Below are positions 723 to 36,365 of a stretch of 64,000 bases of DNA, in pieces. Each line of letters begins with the position of its first letter. Position 1 is the stretch's first letter. The position numbers and the translations under genes were made by a program. Below the pieces are notes generated by a model. That model was not told the DNA's origin. It worked only from the letters and a program-made list of their open reading frames with translations, and made no database searches. Source of the DNA: an uncultured Desulfatibacillum sp. (GTDB taxonomy: Bacteria > Desulfobacterota > Desulfobacteria > Desulfobacterales > SpSt-501); contig CAYRUF010000020.1 of the NCBI GenBank assembly GCA_964427375.1, forward strand, positions 563 through 64,562. Direction: 5' to 3'.

Positions 723-1880
723 ATGACGCTGAAACGAATATCCATCCGCAACCTGATGCGGCGCAAGGGCAAGGCGGCCTTCATTCTGGCCGGGCTTGTG
801 ATCGGAGTGGCCACGGTCGTCGGCATCTTCACCTTCGTGGCGGCGACCACCCACGACATCGCCCACAAGCTCGAGCAATACGGCGCCAACATCCTGATTG
901 TGCCGAAAACCGAAAACCTATCTTTGAGCTACGGCGGGCTTTCGCTGGGCGGGGTGTCCTTCGACCTCGAAGAAATCCGGGAGTCCGAGCTGGCGCGGCT
1001 GGCCACCATTCCCAACCACCGCAACATCGCCGCGGTCGGCCCCATCGTGCTGGGGGCCGCGTCCGTTGCGGACCGTCGGATGCTGATGGCCGGCGTGGAT
1101 TTCCAGGCGGCCGAAATCCTCAAACCCTGGTGGCGGGTGGACGGCCGGTTGCCTCAGGCCGACGAGGCGCTGCTGGGGGCCGAGGCCGCCCGGGCGCTTA
1201 ACCTGACAACCGGCCAGCGCCTGTCCGTGAACGGCCGCGAATTGGCCGTTTCCGGGCGGCTCGAGGCCACCGGCTCCCAGGACGATCACCTGGCGTTTCT
1301 CACCCTCGCCACGGCCCAGCAGCTCTTTGCCAAGTCCGGAAAAATCTCCATGGTCGAGGTGGCGGCCCTGTGCAAGGACTGCCCGATGGAGGACATGGTC
1401 CGGCAGATCGCGGCGGTGCTGCCCGGCGCCAAGGTCATGGCCATCCAGCAGGTGGTCAAAAGCCGCATGGAGGCCTTGGCCCAGTTCCAGAAGTTTTCCT
1501 ACGGGATATCCGCCGTCATTCTTTTCATCGGCGGCCTGGTGGTGCTGGTCACCATGATGGGCAGCGTCCGGGAGCGCACCGAAGAGATCGGCATCTTCCG
1601 GGCCGTGGGCTTCCGGCGTTCGCACATCATGCAGGTCGTTTTCCTGGAGGCCGGGATCATTTCGGCGCTGGCCGGCGTGATCGGCTACGGCCTGGGATGG
1701 GCCTCGGCGGCTGCGGCACTCGCTCTGTCCGGCGACGGCCATGCGGGGCACGTTCCCTTTGCGCCCGAGTGGGCGCTGGGAGCGGTCGCCCTGGCGCTGG
1801 TCCTGGGGCTGGCCGCCACGGTTTATCCGGCGCAGATGGCATCGCGCCTCGATCCGAACGAAGCGCTGCGGGCGCTCTAA
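723..1880 (+). CDS. ABC transporter permease, MacB/FtsX family
   Basis: N-terminal TM helix, periplasmic domain, SVRERTEEIGIFRAVG motif, C-terminal TMs and SRLDPNEALR. Confidence 0.9.
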   Translation: MTLKRISIRNLMRRKGKAAFILAGLVIGVATVVGIFTFVAATTHDIAHKLEQYGANILIVPKTENLSLSYGGLSLGGVSFDLEEIRESELARLATIPNHRNIAAVGPIVLGAASVADRRMLMAGVDFQAAEILKPWWRVDGRLPQADEALLGAEAARALNLTTGQRLSVNGRELAVSGRLEATGSQDDHLAFLTLATAQQLFAKSGKISMVEVAALCKDCPMEDMVRQIAAVLPGAKVMAIQQVVKSRMEALAQFQKFSYGISAVILFIGGLVVLVTMMGSVRERTEEIGIFRAVGFRRSHIMQVVFLEAGIISALAGVIGYGLGWASAAAALALSGDGHAGHVPFAPEWALGAVALALVLGLAATVYPAQMASRLDPNEALRAL

Positions 1881-1904
1881 CCCTCGGGTCGGAAAGGAAC
1901 GCAC

Positions 1905-2612
1905 ATGAGCTACATCGTTGCAGACCAATTGGGCAAGTCCTTCGGAAGCGGAGCGGCCGCGGTGCACGCCGTTTCCGATCTGAATTTCCGGATCGCTCCG
2001 GGCGAGTTCGTCGCGATCATGGGCGAGTCCGGCGCCGGCAAGTCGACCCTGCTGGGAATCCTCGGGGCGATGAGCGCTCCGACCACGGGACGGCTGCACG
2101 TGGACGGCATCGACGTGTACGCGCTGAATCCGGACCGGCTGGCCGATTTCCGGCGCGAGTATCTGGGGTTCGTGTTCCAGAGTTTCCACCTGGTCCCCTA
2201 TCTGTCCGTGATCGAAAACGTCATGCTGCCGCTCGCCGTGAGCCGGCAGGGCGGCTTGGAAAAGCGCCGGCGGGCAAATGAGGCGCTGGCCCAGGTCGGC
2301 CTGGACGGAAAAGCCGACCGGCTCCCCGGAGAGATCTCGGGCGGCGAAAAGGAGCGCGTGGCGGTGGCGCGGGCGATCGTGAACGAGCCGCCGGTGCTGC
2401 TGGCCGACGAGCCCACGGGAAACCTGGATTCCGGAAACAGCCGTGAAATCATGCGGATGTTCCAGCGTCTGAACGCCTCCGGCATGACCGTCATCATGGT
2501 GACCCACAGCGCGGAATGCTCCGGCTATGCCGGGCGCATCATGCAGCTGAGCGACGGCCGACTGAAGACGGACCGGCGAGCCGCCGCCGCCCCTCTGCGG
2601 CGGGCTTCGTAA
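1905..2612 (+). CDS. ABC transporter ATP-binding protein (LolD/MacB-like)
   Basis: Walker A GESGAGKST, signature ISGGEKERVA, Walker B LLADEPTGNLD, MVTH. Confidence 0.93.
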   Translation: MSYIVADQLGKSFGSGAAAVHAVSDLNFRIAPGEFVAIMGESGAGKSTLLGILGAMSAPTTGRLHVDGIDVYALNPDRLADFRREYLGFVFQSFHLVPYLSVIENVMLPLAVSRQGGLEKRRRANEALAQVGLDGKADRLPGEISGGEKERVAVARAIVNEPPVLLADEPTGNLDSGNSREIMRMFQRLNASGMTVIMVTHSAECSGYAGRIMQLSDGRLKTDRRAAAAPLRRAS

Positions 2613-2675
2613 CCGGCGGCCCGGCGGAAGGGGTCGTGGGATTCCGCCGCGGGCGGCCGACGATCGAGGCGTTGC

Positions 2676-2703
2676 TTGACACCCTCGGCGCCGATCGTAT
2701 ATT
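2676..2703 (+). promoter_or_regulatory. sigma70-like promoter of the TIM-barrel gene
   Basis: TTGACA (2676-2681) N16 TATATT (2698-2703); the ORF track's TTG start at 2676 coincides with this -35 box. Confidence 0.45.
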
Positions 2704-2768
2704 TGACCGCGACCGGGGAGCGCTCAGCCGCCGGGGAACTCCGATTCCTCAAGCACGGGGGGACAGGC

Positions 2769-3611
2769 ATGGTTTTCGGTTACAGCACCAATGCGTTCGT
2801 GAAATACCGACTGGTGGATGCGGTGGCGCGCATCGCCCGGCTGGGATTCAAGGGCGTTGAGATCATGGCCGACCGGCCGCACCTGTATCCGCCGGATGTC
2901 GACGAAGCCGAGTTCGAGCGCCTCCAGCAGGCGCTGGTGTCCGGCGGGTTGAAAGTGACCAACCTGAACAGCTTCACGCTGTTCGCCGTGGGCGACACCT
3001 ATCTGCCTTCCTGGATCGAACCGGACCGCGGCCGCCGGGAGATCCGCATCCGCCACACCCGCGACTGCCTGCGCCTGGCCCGGCGGCTGGGCTGCGCCAA
3101 CATCTCCGTGCCGCCCGGCGGGCCGCTTTCCGGCGTCACCCGGGGCGAGGCCGAGCGGCTGTTTTACGAAGGGATCGAGGAGGTCGCCGCGCTCGCCGAA
3201 GCATTGAGCGTCCGACTGTTGGTCGAGCCGGAGCCCGGCCTGATGATTGAGACCACCCGTCAGTTCCAGGAATTCATGCGAGGCGTGCGCTCCCCGGCGG
3301 TCGGGGTGAATTTCGACATCGGCCATTTTTTCTGCGCCGGGGAAGATCCGCGGGAGGCCTTCGAGACGCTTTTCGAATGGGTGGGGCACGTTCACCTGGA
3401 AGACATCGCCCCCACGCGGGTCCATCGGCATCTGATCGCCGGCCGGGGCGCCATCCGGTTCGCCGATGTCCTGACATGCATGCGGCGGCTCGGCTACGCC
3501 GGCGACATCAGCCTGGAACTCTACCCCTACGTCGATACCCCGGAGGAAGCCGGGCGGGAGAGCCGGGCCTTCCTGGAACCGATCTTCGCAGAGGCGGGCT
3601 TCGACATCTAG
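2769..3611 (+). CDS. sugar phosphate isomerase/epimerase (xylose isomerase-like TIM barrel)
   Basis: Metal-ligand motifs VEPEP, NFDIGH, HVHLED, ISLELY; ATG at 2769 follows a purine-rich RBS-like stretch. Confidence 0.85.
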   Translation: MVFGYSTNAFVKYRLVDAVARIARLGFKGVEIMADRPHLYPPDVDEAEFERLQQALVSGGLKVTNLNSFTLFAVGDTYLPSWIEPDRGRREIRIRHTRDCLRLARRLGCANISVPPGGPLSGVTRGEAERLFYEGIEEVAALAEALSVRLLVEPEPGLMIETTRQFQEFMRGVRSPAVGVNFDIGHFFCAGEDPREAFETLFEWVGHVHLEDIAPTRVHRHLIAGRGAIRFADVLTCMRRLGYAGDISLELYPYVDTPEEAGRESRAFLEPIFAEAGFDI

Positions 3612-3682: not shown

Positions 3683-4591
3683 TCAGGCCCTGCTGCTGTG
3701 GCTGCTGACGGTCAGCACCGGGCAAGGCGAACGCCGCACCACCCGGTCGGTGGTTGAGCCCATCAGCAGGGATTCTATCAGGCCGTACCCCCGCACCCCC
3801 ATGACGATCATGTCCATGTTTTGGGCCACGGAATAGGCGACCAGCTCCTCGTGAGGCTGGCCGCGCAGGACGACCACCTGCAGGGAGCACCAGTTGCGGG
3901 CTTCCGGCGGCACCAGCTCTTCCAGTTTCGCCTTAAAGACATCGGTGTGAACCATGTCCTGGGCTTGTTCGGCGGGCGACATGAATTCGCGGTAGGCGGG
4001 CGGCTCGCTCACATGAATGAGGTGCAGTTCGGCCTCGAATTCCTGGGCCAGGCTGAGCCCGTAGTTCAAGCTGAGCACCGAGTCCGTCGAGAAGTCGCAG
4101 CCGACCAGAATTTTCTTCAGCCGGATGCCGGCGGCGTCCTTGCCGATGAAACCCTCCTCGGGGCTTTGCACGGCGAGCAGGGGACAGCTCAGGGTCCGCA
4201 TCAGGCGCTGGGTCACCGACCCCAGGATCAGCCGCTTCAGGCCGGAGTGGCCGCGAGTGGAGGTGATGACGAGATCGACGCCCTTTTCTTCGACCAGGCG
4301 GGCGATTTCGGCAGCCGGCTGGCCGACCGCGATCAACGGCTCCCACGTGACCCGATCGAGCCCCGGTATTTTGGGCAGATGGGCCTGGGCCTCCTGCTGG
4401 ATGCGCACCTGCTGGCCGATGGGGTCCAGCTGGAACTCGCCGTAGATCGTAACTGCCGACAAGTCGATGACGTGGCACACATAAAGCTTGGCGTCGAACT
4501 CCCGCGCGATCGCGACCCCATACGGAATGGTGCGGTTGGAATAATCCGAAAAATCGGTGGCGCAGATGATGCTCCGGAAATTCATTCTCAT
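3683..4591 (-). CDS. universal stress protein (tandem USP domains)
   Basis: Two IxxATDFS/VGCDFS starts and two G..G..LILGSVT/LMGSTT..L..CP motifs. Confidence 0.92.
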   Translation of the reverse strand: MRMNFRSIICATDFSDYSNRTIPYGVAIAREFDAKLYVCHVIDLSAVTIYGEFQLDPIGQQVRIQQEAQAHLPKIPGLDRVTWEPLIAVGQPAAEIARLVEEKGVDLVITSTRGHSGLKRLILGSVTQRLMRTLSCPLLAVQSPEEGFIGKDAAGIRLKKILVGCDFSTDSVLSLNYGLSLAQEFEAELHLIHVSEPPAYREFMSPAEQAQDMVHTDVFKAKLEELVPPEARNWCSLQVVVLRGQPHEELVAYSVAQNMDMIVMGVRGYGLIESLLMGSTTDRVVRRSPCPVLTVSSHSSRA

Positions 4592-7802: not shown

Positions 7803-7812
7803 CAAATTGCAA

Positions 7813-8107
7813 CCCAAATTGAGCGATTTTATCAGCTGACAGCGGAGCCCGTCGGGGTATGCGCCCCGCCGGGCCGCCGCAAAAGACGCCCAGGCTTCGT
7901 CAACGCCCCCGGGGTTTCTCCCATGGCTCCGCACCGGCAGCGACGGCCGAGTCGGCCGTGAGCGCTGCCGTCCGGGGCTATCTGGGCCTATCTGAGCGGG
8001 ATGGCTGCCGTCGAGAGACGGCTACTGAAAAATTGCGGCGGTCCGGCGGGGCGCATACCCCGACGGGCCTTCCCCTAACAATCCGTGTAAGAATCGCTCA
8101 AACTGTA
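7813..8107 (+). mobile_element. ~295 bp MITE, copy 2 (core in opposite orientation)
   Basis: CCCAAATTGAGCGATT (7813-7828) and AATCGCTCAA (8092-8101); flanks TGCAA/TGAAA; internal IR 7847-7882/8033-8068 with 35/36 match. Confidence 0.85.
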
Positions 8108-8132
8108 TGAAAGAAAAGCAGCGCGACAGGCC

Positions 8133-15449: not shown

Positions 15450-15466
15450 CGATTTCCCTTCTGATA

Positions 15467-15759
15467 CCCAAATTGAGCGATTTTATTGCCTGACAGCGGA
15501 GTCCGCAGGCGTGTGCGCCCCGCCGGACCGCCGCAATTTTTCAGTAGCCGTCTCGACGGCAGCCATTCCGCTCAGATAGGCCCAGACAGCCCCGGACGGT
15601 AGAGCCCACGACCCATTCGGCCGGCACTGCCTGTAAGGAGCTATGGGAGAAACCCCGGGGGCGTTGACGAAGCCTGGGCGTCTTTTGCGGCGGTCCGGCG
15701 GGGCGCACACCCCTGCGGACCTTCCCATGACAATAAATGCGATAATCCCTCAAACGATG
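15467..15759 (+). mobile_element. ~293 bp MITE, copy 3
   Basis: CCCAAATTGAGCGATT (15467-15482) and AATCCCTCAA (15744-15753); perfect TSD TGATA (15462-15466, 15760-15764); internal IR 15501-15536/15685-15720 with 35/36 match. Confidence 0.87.
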
Positions 15760-15805
15760 TGATAGAGAACCCATCGCTGGGACGAGACGGGTGCGACCGC
15801 CGACC

Positions 15806-15837
15806 AAAAGGCCGGGGGGCCTCATCCCCGCCGGCCT
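15806..15837 (-). terminator. rho-independent terminator of the dodecin gene
   Basis: Minus strand AGGCCGGCGGGG-ATGAGG-CCCCCCGGCCT followed by TTT. Confidence 0.55.
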
Positions 15838-18981: not shown

Positions 18982-19428
18982 ATGGACGTCATCAAGATCC
19001 GCTTTGCGGCTGAATTCGAGGATCTCAGCAGCGATGTCGAACGAACCATCGAAGACATGTTTCGGTCGCTCAATCCGGTGTTTCGCCTCGCCGAGCGCTC
19101 CTGGAAGCCGTCGATGGACATGAACGAAACTCCGGAGCAGATCATCATCCTGGCGGAGGTGGCCGGCGTCGACAAGGACGACCTGGAGGTGGAGATCAGC
19201 AGTAAAGCCGTGCGCATCCGTGCGATGCGCCCGGCGCGGAACTGGGGTGGGGATGCCACCTACCGCCTGGCGGAGATCCAGTACGGCCGGTTTGAGCGCG
19301 TGCTGTTTCTGCCGGCGCCCATCGATCCGGAGATCGTATCGGCCGCGTACACGAACGGGATGCTTGAGATCCGGCTGGCCAAACTGCAGCTGGAAGCGGT
19401 GCGCCACGTTCCGGTGGCGGACGCCTAG
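18982..19428 (+). CDS. Hsp20/alpha-crystallin family protein (copy 1)
   Basis: PSMDMNET, EVAGVDKDDLEVE, EIQYGRFERVLFLP, YTNGMLEI; AGGAGG RBS. Confidence 0.92.
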   Translation: MDVIKIRFAAEFEDLSSDVERTIEDMFRSLNPVFRLAERSWKPSMDMNETPEQIIILAEVAGVDKDDLEVEISSKAVRIRAMRPARNWGGDATYRLAEIQYGRFERVLFLPAPIDPEIVSAAYTNGMLEIRLAKLQLEAVRHVPVADA

Positions 19429-19506
19429 CCGCCGGCGCCGACCCGCGGCGCGGCCGCCATGATCCGCGCGGCTGCAGCGGACGGCGTTCGAATCCTGGAG
19501 GAACCC

Positions 19507-21897
19507 TTGACGGAGAATACGACATCGCTGCCATCGCCCCCCGAAGCCCTTCCGGAGCTTCTGCCCATCCTTCCGCTTTTCGACGCGGTGCTCTTCCCGA
19601 AGATGGTGTTGCCCTTGATGGTCATTCAGGAAGAATCCGTCAAATTGGTGGATGACGTCATGGCCAAGGACCGGCTGCTCGGGCTGGTGGCGTCCACCCA
19701 GGGCGGGGATCCGAAGCCGGAACGGGTGAAGGACACGCTGTCCTCCGTGGGCACCGGTGCGCTGATCCTCAAGATGGCCAAGACCCATGACAACCGTACC
19801 CAGCTTCTGTTGCAGGGTCTGAGCCGCTTCCGCATCCGATCCTTCGTGGACGGCAAGGCGTTTCTGGAAGCGCACGTCAGCGCGCTGCCGGACCTGGGAG
19901 AGAAGGACAACGAAACCGAAGCGCTCATGGCCAATGTGGTCAGCCAGTTCGTCCGGATCGTCGAGTTGTCGCCGGGGCTGCCCCAGGAGATCGGGCAGAT
20001 GGCGCGCTCCATCCAAGAACCGGGCACCCTGGCCGACATGGTCGCCTCCAGCATCCCGATCAGTCTGGAAGAGAAGCAGAAGGTTCTCGAGCAGGAGCGG
20101 GTGAACGAGCGGCTCCGGATCGTGGCGCGCCTGGTCCACCACCAGCTGGAAATTCTCGAGCTGGGGAAGAAGATCCAGACCCAGGTCAAGGGCGACATGG
20201 AAAAAAGCCAGCGGGATTACTACCTGCGGCAGCAGCTGAAAGCCATCCGCGAGGAGCTCGGGGAGAAGGACGACGCCTCGGGAGAGATCGAGGAGATGCG
20301 CCGGAAGATCGCCGCCAAAAATCTGCCCGACGAGGCCCGCAGGGAGGCCGACCGGGAATTGGAGCGGCTGGCGCGGATGCACCCCTCCTCGGCCGAGTAC
20401 ACCGTCGCCTCCACCTACCTCGACTGGCTGGCGGCGCTGCCCTGGCACGACGCCACCGTCGATACGCTGGATATCCCGCGCGCGCGCAAGATTTTGGACG
20501 ATGATCACTTCGGCCTGGAAAAGCCGAAACGGCGCATCATCGAATACCTGGCCGTGCGCAAGCTCAAGCCGAATTCGAAGGGCCCCATCCTTTGCCTGGC
20601 CGGACCTCCCGGCACCGGCAAGACCTCCCTGGGCCAGTCCATCGCCCGCGCGCTCGGGCGCCGGTTCCACCGCATCTCGCTGGGCGGGGTGCGCGACGAG
20701 GCCGAGATCCGCGGGCACCGGCGCACCTATGTCGGAGCCCTGCCCGGGCGGGTCATTCAGGCCCTGCGCCGCACCGGTTCCAACAACCCGGTTTTCATGC
20801 TGGATGAGATCGACAAGGTCGGCAGCGATTTCCGCGGAGACCCGTCCTCGGCGCTCCTGGAAGTGCTGGATCCCGAGCAGAACAAATCCTTTTCCGACCA
20901 TTACCTGGATGTGCCTTTCGATCTGTCGCGGGTGCTGTTCATCGCCACCGCGAACGTCCTGGACACGATTCCGCCCGCGCTGCGCGACCGGATGGAGGTC
21001 CTGAACCTCGTCGGCTATACCCTGGACGAAAAGTTGAAAATCGCTCATCGCCATCTCATCCCGCGCCAGCGCGAGGAACACGGCCTGACCGCCAAGCAGA
21101 TCCGGATCACGTCCGGCGCCGTGCGCGAGATCATCACGGGCTACACGCGCGAGGCCGGCCTCCGGAACCTGGAGCGCGAAATCGCGGGCATCTGCCGGCG
21201 GGCGGCCAGCAAAATCGCCCAGGGGCGTGCCAAGACCGTGAACGTCGGACGCAGCGATCTGCACGGAATGCTGGGGCCGGTCCGTTTCATCGACGAGCCG
21301 CGGGCGCGCGTCACCACGCCGGGAATCGCCACCGGTCTGGCATGGACGCCGGTCGGCGGGGAACTGCTGTTCATCGAGGCCACCGCCATGAAGGGCAAAA
21401 AAGGCCTGACGCTGACCGGCCAGCTGGGTGACGTCATGAAGGAGTCGGCGGCGGCGGCCCTTAGCTTCATCCGAGCCAACAGCCCGGCCCTGGGAATCGA
21501 CGAGCAATTTTACGAAACCCACGACATCCACATCCACCTGCCCGCCGGCGCCATTCCCAAGGACGGCCCGTCGGCCGGAGTCACCCTGCTGACGGCGCTC
21601 ACCTCGCTTTTTACCGACCGGCCGGTGCGCCCGGATCTGGCCATGACCGGCGAAATCACGTTGCGGGGCCAGGTGCTCCCGGTGGGCGGCATCAAGGAGA
21701 AGGTCCTGGCGGCCCACCGCGCCCGCATAGCGGCCGTGATTCTGCCGGCCTGGAACCGCAAGGACTTGGAAGACGTTCCGAAAAACATCCAGAAGGAAAT
21801 CCGATTCCACTTCGTGGACCGCATGCTGGACGTTCTGGAGCTCGCCCTGACCCCGGATCCACGCAGACCCAAACCCCGGAAACGCCGAAAGGGATGA
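19507..21897 (+). CDS. lon: Lon protease (copy 1)
   Basis: LON N domain, [20 protein letters not shown] catalytic Ser, VGGIKEK; TTG start at 19507 with GGAGGA RBS matches the paralog N-terminus (alternative ATG 19459). Confidence 0.95.
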   Translation: MTENTTSLPSPPEALPELLPILPLFDAVLFPKMVLPLMVIQEESVKLVDDVMAKDRLLGLVASTQGGDPKPERVKDTLSSVGTGALILKMAKTHDNRTQLLLQGLSRFRIRSFVDGKAFLEAHVSALPDLGEKDNETEALMANVVSQFVRIVELSPGLPQEIGQMARSIQEPGTLADMVASSIPISLEEKQKVLEQERVNERLRIVARLVHHQLEILELGKKIQTQVKGDMEKSQRDYYLRQQLKAIREELGEKDDASGEIEEMRRKIAAKNLPDEARREADRELERLARMHPSSAEYTVASTYLDWLAALPWHDATVDTLDIPRARKILDDDHFGLEKPKRRIIEYLAVRKLKPNSKGPILCLAGPPGTGKTSLGQSIARALGRRFHRISLGGVRDEAEIRGHRRTYVGALPGRVIQALRRTGSNNPVFMLDEIDKVGSDFRGDPSSALLEVLDPEQNKSFSDHYLDVPFDLSRVLFIATANVLDTIPPALRDRMEVLNLVGYTLDEKLKIAHRHLIPRQREEHGLTAKQIRITSGAVREIITGYTREAGLRNLEREIAGICRRAASKIAQGRAKTVNVGRSDLHGMLGPVRFIDEPRARVTTPGIATGLAWTPVGGELLFIEATAMKGKKGLTLTGQLGDVMKESAAAALSFIRANSPALGIDEQFYETHDIHIHLPAGAIPKDGPSAGVTLLTALTSLFTDRPVRPDLAMTGEITLRGQVLPVGGIKEKVLAAHRARIAAVILPAWNRKDLEDVPKNIQKEIRFHFVDRMLDVLELALTPDPRRPKPRKRRKG

Positions 21898-33486: not shown

Positions 33487-35844
33487 TTATTTTTCAAGCG
33501 CCAGCTTGAGGACGTCCATCATTCGATCCACGAAGTGAAACGTGATGTCCTTTTGCACTTTCTTCGGGATGTCTTCCAGGTCCTTGTGATTTTCTTTGGG
33601 CAGGATGACCGTCTTGATTCCGGCGCGGTGGGCGGCCAGCACTTTTTCCTTGATCCCGCCCACCGGCAGCACCTGGCCGCGCAGGGTGATTTCCCCGGTC
33701 ATGGCGAGATCTTTGACCACCGCATGCTTGGTGAGGAAGGAGACCAGGGCGGTGAAGATGGTGACTCCGGCCGAGGGTCCGTCCTTGGGGATGGCGCCGG
33801 CCGGTATGTGGATGTGGATGTCCTGGCTTTCGAAGATGGTTTCGGACAGGCCCAGTTTGACGGCGTGAGTGCGGATGAAGCTCAGCGCCGCCTGGGCCGA
33901 CTCCTTCATGACATCGCCGAGTTGGCCGGTCATGATCAGGCGATCCTTGCCCTTCATGGCGGTGGCTTCGACAAAGAGGATGTCGCCGCCGACCTGGGTC
34001 CAGGCCAGGCCGGTGACCACCCCCGGCGTGGACGTGCGCGACCGGGTTTCCGCGCTGAAGCGCACCGGCCCGAGATATTTGGTGACCTGCTGGGCCTTGA
34101 TGGCCTCGGCGGTGATCGACCCCTCGGCGACTCGGCTGGCCACCCCGCGGCAGATGGAACCGATCTCGCGTTCCAGGTTGCGCAGGCCGGCCTCCCGCGT
34201 GTAGCCGGAGATGATGTGCCGCAGGGCCGCGCGGCTGAAGGTGATCTGCTCGGCCGAAAGCCCGTTGGCCGAGCGCTGGCGGGGGATCAGGTGCCGCTCG
34301 GCGATGTGGATCTTCTCGTCCTCGGTATAGCCCAGCAGCTGCAGCACTTCCATGCGGTCGCGCAGCGCCGGCGGGATCGTGTCGAGGATGTTGGCGGTGG
34401 CGATGAACATGGCTTTGGACAGGTCGAACGGCACGTCGAGATAATGGTCCTGGAAGGAGTGGTTCTGCTCGGGGTCGAGCACCTCCAGCAGGGCCGATGA
34501 GGGGTCGCCGCGGAAATCGGCGCCCAGCTTGTCGATTTCGTCGAGCATAAAAACGGGGTTGTTGGATTCGGCGCGGCGGATGCCCTGGATGACCCGTCCG
34601 GGCAGGGCGCCGACATAGGTGCGGCGGTGGCCGCGGATCTCGGCTTCGTCCCGCACGCCGCCGAGGGACATGCGATAGAACTTGCGGCCGAGGGCGCGGG
34701 CGATGGACTGGCCGAGCGAGGTCTTGCCGGTGCCGGGAGGGCCCGCAAAGCACAGGATCGGCCCCTTGGAGTCGGGCTTGAGCTTGCGCACGGCGAGATA
34801 TTCGATGATGCGGCGCTTGGGCTTTTCAAGGCCGTAATGGTCGTCGTCCAGCACCTTGCGGGCCTTCTTGATATCCAGGTTGTCCTCGGTGGCCTGGTGC
34901 CAGGGCAGGCCGGTCAGCCAATCGAGAAACGTGGTGGCGACCGTGTACTCCGCCGAGGAGGGATGCATGCGCCCGAGCCGTTCGAGCTCGCGCTCCGCCT
35001 CTTTGGCCGCCTCCGGCGGCAGGTTGGCCTCGCTGACCTTGGTGCGATAGGTCTCCACCTCGGCGGTGGCTTCGTCCTTTTCGCCCAGCTCGGCCTTGAT
35101 GGCCTTGAGCTGTTCGCGCAGGTAGTACTCGCGCTGCTTCTTGTCCATGTCCTCCTTGACCTGGTCCTGGATCTTCTTGCCCAGCTCCAGGATTTCCAGC
35201 TGCTTGTTCACGATGCGCGTGACCTCCTTCAGCCGGTCGGCCACGGGTCCGAGCTCAAGCACCTTCTGCTTTTCTTCCGCCGTGGCGTTGATGGAGGAGG
35301 CGATCATATCGGCCAGGGTGCCGGCCTCCTTGATCGACTGCGCCATGTAGACGACTTCGGCGGGAAGGGTCGGCGACGCCTGCACGACGCGCGCAAAGAG
35401 GTTCACAATATTGGTCATCAAGGCTTCGATCTCGGTATTCTGCGAGGCGTCTTCGGCCAAATGCTCGACCTCGGCCTGGAAGAAGGCCTTGCCCTCGGCC
35501 TGCACGAGGTTCTTGATCCGGAAACGCCCCAGGCCCTGGACCAGCAGCTGGGTGCGGTTTTCAGGGGTCTTGGCCATTTTGAGGATCATGGCGCTCGTTC
35601 CTACGGACGCGTAGCTCTCCGGCTTCGGCGGCCCTTCCTGGGAGGGGTCGGGTTTGGCGAAGACCATGCCGATCAGGCGGTCGCGCGACATGGCCTCGTC
35701 GATGAGCTGCACCGAATCCGGCTGCATCACCAGCAGCGGGGTCACCATCTTGGGAAACAGCACCGAGTCGACCACCGGCAGCAGGGGCAGAATATCCGGA
35801 AGCTGGTTCGCAACAGCGGCTTCAGATGATTGTTCGTCGGTCAT
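33487..35844 (-). CDS. lon: Lon protease (copy 2)
   Basis: [27 protein letters not shown]. Confidence 0.95.
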
Positions 35845-35921
35845 GTCACCCTCCGAATCCGTTTACTTCCGCAGCGGAAACATTCACGTCGCAGCAGCTG
35901 AGCCATGCCCGAGGCTGCCAT

Positions 35922-36365
35922 TCATTCGCTGGTGATGGGCACTTTGTAAGTCTGGTCCATCGGCCGTTTGACCAGCCGGATCTCCAGCAATCCATTCTTG
36001 GCCGCAGCGCTGACCTTGTCCGGATCGATGGGGCTCGGCAGGAAGAGGATGCGCTCGAACCGTCCGTACTGGATTTCGGCCAGGCGATAGGTGCAGCTGG
36101 CGCCAGAGGCCGGCGTCAGGCGTTTGCCCTGGATGCGCACGGCCTTGCTGCTGATCTCGACTTCGAGATCCTCCTTGTCCACGCCGCCGATCTCGGCCCG
36201 GATGACGACTTCATCCGGCGTTTCATACATGTCCATCGGCGGGCGCCAGGCGCGTTCCGAGAGCGTGAAGGACGGGCCGATCCCCAGCATGTCCTCCAGG
36301 GTCTTTTCAAACTTGGAGGACAACTCGTCCAGGTCGTTGCCGAAGCGAATCTTGAAGAATTCCAT
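35922..36365 (-). CDS. Hsp20/alpha-crystallin family protein (copy 2)
   Basis: PPMDMYET, EIGGVDKEDLEVE, EIQYGRFERILFLP, KNGLLEI. Confidence 0.92.
   Translation of the reverse strand: MEFFKIRFGNDLDELSSKFEKTLEDMLGIGPSFTLSERAWRPPMDMYETPDEVVIRAEIGGVDKEDLEVEISSKAVRIQGKRLTPASGASCTYRLAEIQYGRFERILFLPSPIDPDKVSAAAKNGLLEIRLVKRPMDQTYKVPITSE

Follow-up and report, generated by a model that had tools for sequence, protein, structure and literature searches.

A pair of inverted repeats lies at positions 15501-15720 of a 64,000-nucleotide stretch of contig CAYRUF010000020.1 from an uncultured Desulfatibacillum sp. (the window, by which we mean the whole stretch analysed here). The pair raises the question of why two arms agree almost perfectly within one copy of a repeat while differing between copies. 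We put at about 0.68 the probability that these repeats belong to the interior of a MITE (miniature inverted-repeat transposable element, about 293-297 bp) whose inner arms recombine with or convert each other, flipping the core between them and homogenising the arms.

A profile scan with the module revealed three copies in the window and no further match there. Their alignment gives a unit of about 295 nt (293-297 bp), of which the inner repeats are the middle part. Each copy is bounded by an AT-rich target duplication of 5 bp. Within it, an alpha outer arm (39 nt) and a beta outer arm (34 nt) enclose a 220-bp inner module, in which a 36-bp near-perfect inverted repeat (IR) encloses an asymmetric core of about 148 bp. 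The tips (CCTAAATTGAGCGATT...AATCGCTCAATTTAGG) are shared by the window copies and about 50 metagenome copies. In inverted form the outer arms resemble each other only roughly, and they are distinguishable by the spacer from the motif TTGAGCGATT to the inner repeat, which measures 22-25 nt in the alpha arm and 18-19 nt in the beta arm. In copy 3, which contains the repeats named above, the duplicated 5-mer TGATA (15462-15466 and 15760-15764) flanks a beta-type outer arm with the tip CCCAAATTGAGCGATT and an 18-nt spacer (15467-15500, plus strand), the left IR arm (15501-15536, plus), the 148-nt core (15537-15684, whose reference (+) strand is the minus strand of the window), the right IR arm (15685-15720, plus) and an alpha-type outer arm with a 23-nt spacer and the tip ...CCCTCAAACGATG (15721-15759, plus). 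The element is non-coding: its open frames differ among copies and are shifted by indels, and a conserved open reading frame (ORF) within it was ruled out on the ground that the frames are not the same across copies. It occupies intergenic, AT-rich spots.

The observations on the arms in the preliminary description of this DNA hold. The arms pair at 35/36 positions both in copy 3 (15501-15536 with 15685-15720) and in copy 2 (7847-7882 with 8033-8068), and the left arms of these two copies differ at 6/36 positions (2, 6, 7, 10, 13 and 27); four of these changes (2, 6, 7 and 13) recur as mirror images in the partner arm. The other two changes are one-sided. That at position 10 belongs to copy 3 and to its left arm alone, and it disrupts the hairpin, leaving GGCG...CCCC; the C concerned (15510) is private to this copy, G accounting for 2198 of a depth of 2247. 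That at position 27 belongs to copy 2, likewise in its left arm alone. In copy 1, a further C-to-A change and an insertion of 1 nt each appear in mirror image in both arms. The loops of the GGGG-N6-CCCC hairpins had been given correctly as TGTTCG, TATGCG and TGTGCG for copies 1, 2 and 3, respectively.

At least 60 further copies came from wetland and freshwater metagenomes. Scanning with the inner-repeat pattern returned 85 stretches, their sources being wetland, sediment and freshwater samples. An alignment was made of 61 full copies, and 52 non-redundant modules form alignment A1, on which the covariation statistics rest. A spurious ORF of the element served as bait for three copies (L001-L003) in a JGI sample. 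A first metagenome scan with a 26-base core pattern, which was too strict, gave no match, and no similar sequence was present in the plasmid collection. DNA scans of a genome collection (one genome per species) with the core and IR patterns also gave no match; the family is either absent from that collection or collapsed in its assemblies. One contig with beta arms on both sides (L035, 1-830) is a perfect foldback around the element and was excluded because its flanks are exact reverse complements; the foldback is probably an assembly artefact of the element's palindromic structure.

Covariation is present in this larger alignment as well. In the arm-arm helix, 14 of the 37 pairs have changed on both sides, with 98.1% of cells pairing. 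When the IR stem and the core helices were tested together as one structure, 0/500 shuffles reached its covariation measures, slid controls being far lower. Column pair 13/220, the second base of the loop, illustrates the pattern: C-G in 30 copies, A-U in 14, G-C in 8 and broken in none. Arms differ by 1.35/37 positions within a copy (20/52 copies are perfect) and by 3.2-3.3/37 between copies, so within-copy identity does exceed between-copy identity. The covariation is restricted to the arms, the predicted core helices having one covarying pair, and the GGGG-N6-CCCC hairpins are almost invariant, with no covariation of their own.

What makes the arms of one copy alike? Recombination between them would explain why the core flips and, if heteroduplex repair or template switching takes part, why the arms become alike. 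Within one element, the two 36-bp arms would pair and then exchange, either through homologous recombination or through template switching during replication. A crossover between them would flip the core, and repair of the resulting heteroduplex, or copying of one arm from the other, would make the arms identical again. Within-copy "covariation" would thus arise without selection on any fold. Four observations favour such a process at the DNA level; two of them, on the orientation of the core in the family and at one orthologous locus, are described below. Of the other two, the first is that the arm mismatches (14 G.T, 15 A.C and 22 other) are strand-symmetric and about one quarter wobble, which is the expectation for fresh mutations in one arm and not for an RNA stem. 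The second is that mirrored changes occur between orthologous loci: TCACGG stands in both arms of L020, with TCCCGG and GCCCGG in L064b, and GCCCAG stands in both arms of L009/L045, with GCCCGG in both of L087. That two independent mutations should fall on precisely mirror-image sites when divergence is a few per cent is very unlikely, and these changes, like the mirrored insertion of copy 1, are explained by copying one arm from the other.

The alternative offered by the preliminary description, selection for an RNA or single-stranded DNA (ssDNA) fold, would keep the arms or the element paired, with the mirrored changes as compensatory substitutions. The folded molecule might be a hairpin in read-through RNA, acting as an RNase III target or stabiliser as in Correia and ERIC elements, or an ssDNA hairpin formed in transposition. 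Several features of the element agree with this. Its predicted ssDNA fold (-80.1 kcal/mol) is far better than that of shuffles (z = -6.8), and the pairing of 98% of arm cells, with 14 covarying pairs, is what such selection would leave. In the core, conserved stems surround hypervariable loops, and the (+) strand folds better than the (-) strand (mean -59.7 vs -51.9 kcal/mol) and includes several conserved G.U pairs. In two metatranscriptomes there are contigs of about 200 nt that cover the core and one arm, and compensatory changes have been described in REPIN arms (PMC3116915). We nevertheless consider the fold explanation unlikely. The strand-symmetric mismatches, with the quarter of wobble pairs that random one-arm mutation would give, do not favour it, and mirrored changes, which include an insertion, arise between orthologous loci only 2-10% diverged, too fast for paired point mutations. 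At most one pair of the core helices covaries, co-orientation of the core strand with adjacent genes is not significant (12 vs 5, with crude gene calls), and Rfam gave no match at the gathering score and none with an E-value up to 1 on the element. Nor does a fold predict that the core flips relative to its flanks. Specific support for selection on a fold was thus not obtained.

The core contains a conserved 11-bp internal inverted repeat, GCGACGGCAGC / GCTGCCGTTGC (A1 columns 99-110 and 166-178; about 7939-7950 and 8005-8019 in copy 2). It is paired in 90% of cases and invariant, so that covariation is uninformative about it; its first half can alternatively pair with a nearby TGTCGTG, which is also invariant. 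The stem GCCGTC-GA-GACGGC, described earlier as kept in the core, is kept only in the window-type subfamily, as most copies of the larger family have G:T, G:G or G:A at the fourth pair; the 2-nt loop drawn for it is sterically impossible, and a 5-bp stem closed by a loop of 4 nt is the better reading. The two metatranscriptome contigs, one each from runs X25 and X26 (outdoor and sludge), are 90-92% identical to 15537-15732 and span the core together with one of the inner repeats and some of the alpha arm; carry-over DNA, read-through and a discrete transcript are indistinguishable as their source. An origin of the core from a nested copy of the element's own arm was rejected, local core-arm alignments being no better than shuffles, with L033 (15/500 shuffles) as a marginal exception. 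A core motif, CCTATCTGAGCGG (7988-8000; A1 columns about 143-160), resembles the element tip CCTAAATTGAGCG.

Flipping of the core was first apparent in the window itself, where the three copies can be aligned only if the core of copy 2 is reverse-complemented. Copy 2 comprises a beta outer arm (7813-7846), the left IR arm (7847-7882), a 150-nt core (7883-8032), the right IR arm (8033-8068) and an alpha outer arm (8069-8107), all given on the plus strand, between the 5-mers TGCAA (7808-7812) and TGAAA (8108-8112), which match at 4/5 positions. Its core is inverted relative to the outer arms when compared with copies 1 and 3. Independent unitigs from runs X1 and X2 start in either flank of copy 2, cross the IR, reach the core and agree with the orientation in the window, which indicates that this orientation is not an assembly error. 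Copy 1 differs in another way, as the whole element runs opposite in direction to copies 2 and 3: the duplication TTTGA (394-398, repeated at 696-700) encloses, on the plus strand, an alpha outer arm (399-437), a 37-nt IR arm with the mirrored 1-nt insertion (438-474), a 149-nt core (475-623), the partner arm (624-661) and a beta outer arm (662-695).

Across the family, both orientations occur. With the core held fixed, the alpha arm lies on the left in 29 copies (plus 6 probable) and the beta arm in 10 (plus 3 probable), and beta arms lie on both sides in 2. The orientation states are scattered over the core tree, which requires at least 12 switches, and near-identical cores are found in opposite orientations. 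At one locus, two samples carry opposite orientations: L024 and L007 have collinear flanks with 96-97% identity and an inverted module. This is the sole discordant case among eight groups of orthologous loci. At the copy 3 locus, a joint on "opposite strands" was rejected as evidence of flipping, as it came from another copy of the family (86% identity). These orientation data, together with the mirrored changes at orthologous loci, support the proposal, also made in the preliminary description, that repeated inversion homogenises the arms. Beta-type arms on both sides were seen in L062 (56-348) and L065 (816-1107), a state that could result from conversion running into the outer arms or from recombination between copies.

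The same orientation data raise the possibility that the 220-bp module is an inverton carried as cargo by the MITE, flipped by a dedicated site-specific recombinase to alter adjacent expression. The recombinase site would be the 36-bp repeat with its 11-6-12 dyad, GCCCGGAGGGG-TCTGCG-CCCCGCAGGGGC. Both orientations occur, in one case at the same locus, and the IR is the most conserved part of the element (1.5 vs 3.6 parsimony steps per column). Tyrosine recombinases require matched overlap regions, and the 6-nt centre of the dyad is variable yet matched between arms in 52/52 copies. The core has conserved blocks, and the module seems unnecessary for mobility, as short relatives described below transpose without it. 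Against these points, the match of the centres is not statistically special, about 1.9 mismatches being expected where 0 were seen, and the conservation of the IR is inflated by the IR-based recovery of copies. Homogenisation covers the whole arm, which is unlike site-specific exchange. Copy 2 lies between convergent gene ends, and neither a sigma-70-like promoter nor an intrinsic terminator was found inside copies 2 and 3, other promoter types being outside the scan. No protein family recurs beside the copies, although no search aimed at recombinases was made. On balance, a dedicated switch seems improbable. Were it true, orientation-dependent signals, for example sense versus antisense transcription of the structured core, would have been spread to tens of intergenic sites per genome, and the conserved core blocks and matched repeat centres would be functional. 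The module may have a function, be it as an RNA or through recombinase-driven switching, but none of the results obtained here calls for one.

How the element reached its sites is recorded in the sequences around it. A contig from a related organism skips exactly 15462-15759, and another reads ...CTCCTTACC followed directly by TGATAGAG, with one TGATA where the window has TGATA-element-TGATA; this single TGATA without the element was seen in related genomes as a joint (X28) and as a loose end (X27). Correspondingly, the gap between the dodecin and thioesterase genes is 100-143 nt in relatives with about 85% protein identity and 425 nt in the window. Across the recovered copies, 21 five-bp duplications are perfect and 13 match at 4/5 positions, compared with 0.2% perfect in the control. 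All examples are AT-rich: TTTGA (copy 1), TGATA (copy 3), TTTTA, TTTCA and TATCA. The empty sites and the duplications together show insertion, whether cut-and-paste or replicative, with a staggered cut. Terminal inverted repeats with a duplication of fixed length are the mark of a staggered-cut transposase of the DDE type, and such an enzyme, acting in trans and cutting the target with a 5-bp stagger, would be what moves the element. Read depth over the element in freshwater metagenome run X1 is 1000-3300, compared with about 50 in the flanks, a ratio of 20-60x that corresponds to tens of copies. The element is present in tens of copies per genome in uncultured freshwater and wetland bacteria. 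Relatives of a neighbouring gene at 77% identity carry metagenome-assembled genome labels of Desulfobacterales.

Mobilisation of another kind had been suggested by the small hairpins, which were said to resemble sites read by HUH enzymes. In that account the element would be REPIN-like or derived from IS200/IS605, with a RAYT or TnpA enzyme reading the GGGG-N6-CCCC hairpins and moving ssDNA. However, HUH single-strand transposition, as in IS200/IS605, leaves no target duplication and involves no terminal inverted repeats, and here the terminal inverted repeats and the 5-bp duplication at empty sites contradict it. Each arm does carry a small G+C-rich hairpin, and the inverted doublet covaries as REPIN arms do (PMC3116915). 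The hairpins, however, are internal, lying 34-39 nt from the element ends with the GGGG motif 41-46 nt inside, and do not covary in themselves. An IS200/IS605 (PATE-like) origin would be expected to place hairpins at the very ends and insertions next to a fixed short motif, whereas the targets here vary and are AT-rich. No gene in the window is flanked by copies of the hairpin. An HUH enzyme can therefore scarcely be credited, and the inner arms are most likely alike through mutual recombination and not through reading by such an enzyme.

Short relatives of 85-95 nt bear on which parts of the element matter for its movement. They have the same tips and alpha and beta arms but no core (L020 855-945; L036 1798-1889, equal to L064 9254-9345; L084 1388-1482; L044 1120-1204; L023 near 9054; L004 near 276), and perfect 5-bp duplications flank those in L020, L036/L064 and L084. 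Some retain just the outer half of one inner repeat, and L084 retains one entire repeat. Since these short elements combine tips, arms and perfect duplications without the core, the outer arms seem sufficient for mobility, with deletion after insertion as an alternative origin of the short forms. The short relatives could be either ancestors or deletion derivatives.

In another reading, the inner module would be a separate mobile element that inserted, in either direction, into a short palindromic MITE made of outer arms only, and the two configurations would stem from independent insertions instead of inversion. The core-less elements with the same arms and tips (L020, L036, L044) are as this would predict. 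The module, however, has no target duplication of its own; instead, the bases outside the GGGG are inverted and covary as part of the IR. Its junctions are identical in every copy, and it was always found with at least remnants of the outer arms. Separate insertion would also demand excision and re-insertion at the same base to explain L024/L007, and it does not account for near-identical cores in opposite orientations. We regard it as very improbable.

Several observations weigh against the explanation favoured here, and we consider them together. Neither 0.5 Mb of loci nor the viral contigs and plasmids searched yielded a partner transposase with matching ends. All evidence of flipping comes from comparisons between assemblies, as run contigs built from 31-letter words break in the 36-bp repeat, and the alternative orientation was not seen at copies 2 and 3 in unitigs from runs X1-X3, in which rare variants are dropped. 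A plain crossover would swap arm segments and not homogenise them, so that heteroduplex repair or template switching would be needed in addition. Most copies were baited with the IR pattern, which inflates the conservation of the IR between copies. Finally, zero-step columns number 24 in the core against an expected 4.3 (dispersion 3.5), and the conserved blocks of the core surround hypervariable stretches; passive decay does not explain this conservation.

The search for the partner transposase left some other matches to account for. No protein family recurs across the loci. Extra matches to the outer motif within the loci were set aside as chance matches or truncated copies, and none of five tip-like matches in viral contigs proved to be an insertion sequence. 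One of these contigs, L100, is phage-like, with portal and head genes, and carries at 4395-4412 a sequence resembling the tip plus beta arm, CCTAAATTGAGCGATTTTTTACTCGACTTGCACC, 23 nt upstream of an ORF at the contig end; this could be a chance match or a truncated copy.

The family can be compared with several known systems. Correia elements of Neisseria (CREE/NEMIS) measure 100-155 bp, duplicate TA and have ends of two unlike types in different combinations. Like them, the present element is a small, non-coding, intergenic MITE with many copies, two unlike types of end and a long hairpin fold. Inversion of Correia elements has been reported, with a possible link to phase variation (review PMC10969869). 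In contrast, the element described here has no sequence similarity to Correia elements, is about 295 bp long and makes a 5-bp duplication; flipping is confined to its inner module, which lies within a second, near-perfect repeat of 36 bp, and leaves the outer arms where they are. No promoter was found inside.

Ends of the Tn3 family have a GGGG tip. Read from its GGGG inward (L059 3242-3252, GGGGTCTGCGC), the inner repeat resembles what we take to be the Tn3 tip, GGGGTCTGACGC, with the remainder mismatched. Among Tn3-derived MITEs, the TIMEs are 262 bp long, with 38-bp terminal repeats, 5-bp AT-rich duplications and a long predicted stem-loop (PMC4133298). The element resembles them in size and in duplication length; unlike theirs, its outer tips begin with CCTAAATT and not GGGG, and no similarity to plasmid-borne elements was found. 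A resemblance to the IS1380 family lies in the tips. The left-inverted-repeat primer for ISEcp1-blaOXA-181 presumably corresponds to the left inverted repeat (IRL) of ISEcp1. This Tn2013 primer starts with CCTAGATTCTACG (CCTAGATT...) (PMC3570352). The tips of our element, CCTAAATTGAGCG, match it at 7/8 first bases, and the similarity is limited to these 8 bases. The IS1380-family element ISPsp9 makes a 5-bp duplication (PMC4133298), and duplications of 4-5 bp and ends starting with CC are shared with that family; as these features are common to other families too, they are weak evidence. Tip and duplication length thus offer a lead towards IS1380, not membership.

REPINs are tied to a RAYT gene and have neither terminal inverted repeats nor a target duplication. 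The inner repeats share with them an inverted doublet of a conserved G+C-rich motif with mirrored changes (PMC3116915). The 5-bp duplication and terminal repeats set the element apart, as does the internal position of its hairpin-bearing repeats. Its short, IR-bounded segment in both orientations is reminiscent of invertons such as fimS and the invertible promoters of Bacteroides. Invertons, however, occupy fixed loci and have an internal promoter and a dedicated recombinase, whereas the segment described here rides on a transposable element in tens of copies, with no promoter found. A further parallel to the behaviour of the arms is the concerted evolution of inverted repeats, as in the flip-flop isomers of plastids or in template switching at quasipalindromes, in which arms are identical within a molecule and diverge between lineages. 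Here too, arms are alike within a copy and the spacer occurs in both orientations. The scale differs: arms of 36 bp with a spacer of 148 bp are near the lower limit for homologous recombination.

The surroundings of the copies deserve brief mention. Copy 3 inserted just past terminator-like hairpins downstream of the dodecin gene (15770-15830, minus strand), its target TATCA lying in the T-rich tail. A preference for AT-rich targets may steer the family to terminator and promoter regions of this G+C-rich genome. Elsewhere in the window are repeats of other kinds. Two inverted copies of about 2.6 kb (19087-21746 and 33599-36263), 74-78% identical and about 12 kb apart, look like a diverged duplication of a gene cluster that was inverted. 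Repeated blocks of 44-70 nt with GGCAAGACCACC-type motifs, spaced 1.6-3.7 kb from start to start between 45100 and 53520, fit paralogous Mur ligase genes of a cell-wall (dcw) cluster.

In summary, the repeats define a new MITE family, of a known kind but variant in that its nested inner module is prone to flip. It offers a natural example of "covariation" between distant inverted repeats that would result from DNA-level conversion of one arm by the other and not from selection on a fold, and covariation made by conversion is a known trap in RNA-structure screens of repeated elements. What stands out is the nested architecture, in which the inner module flips while the transposon ends stay, together with core blocks that passive decay does not explain. 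If flipping is rare within populations, we would see in the family no more than an ordinary selfish repeat, with the breaking of short-read assemblies as its chief practical effect. If it is frequent, the family would constitute a set of dispersed invertible segments in abundant, uncultured environmental bacteria.

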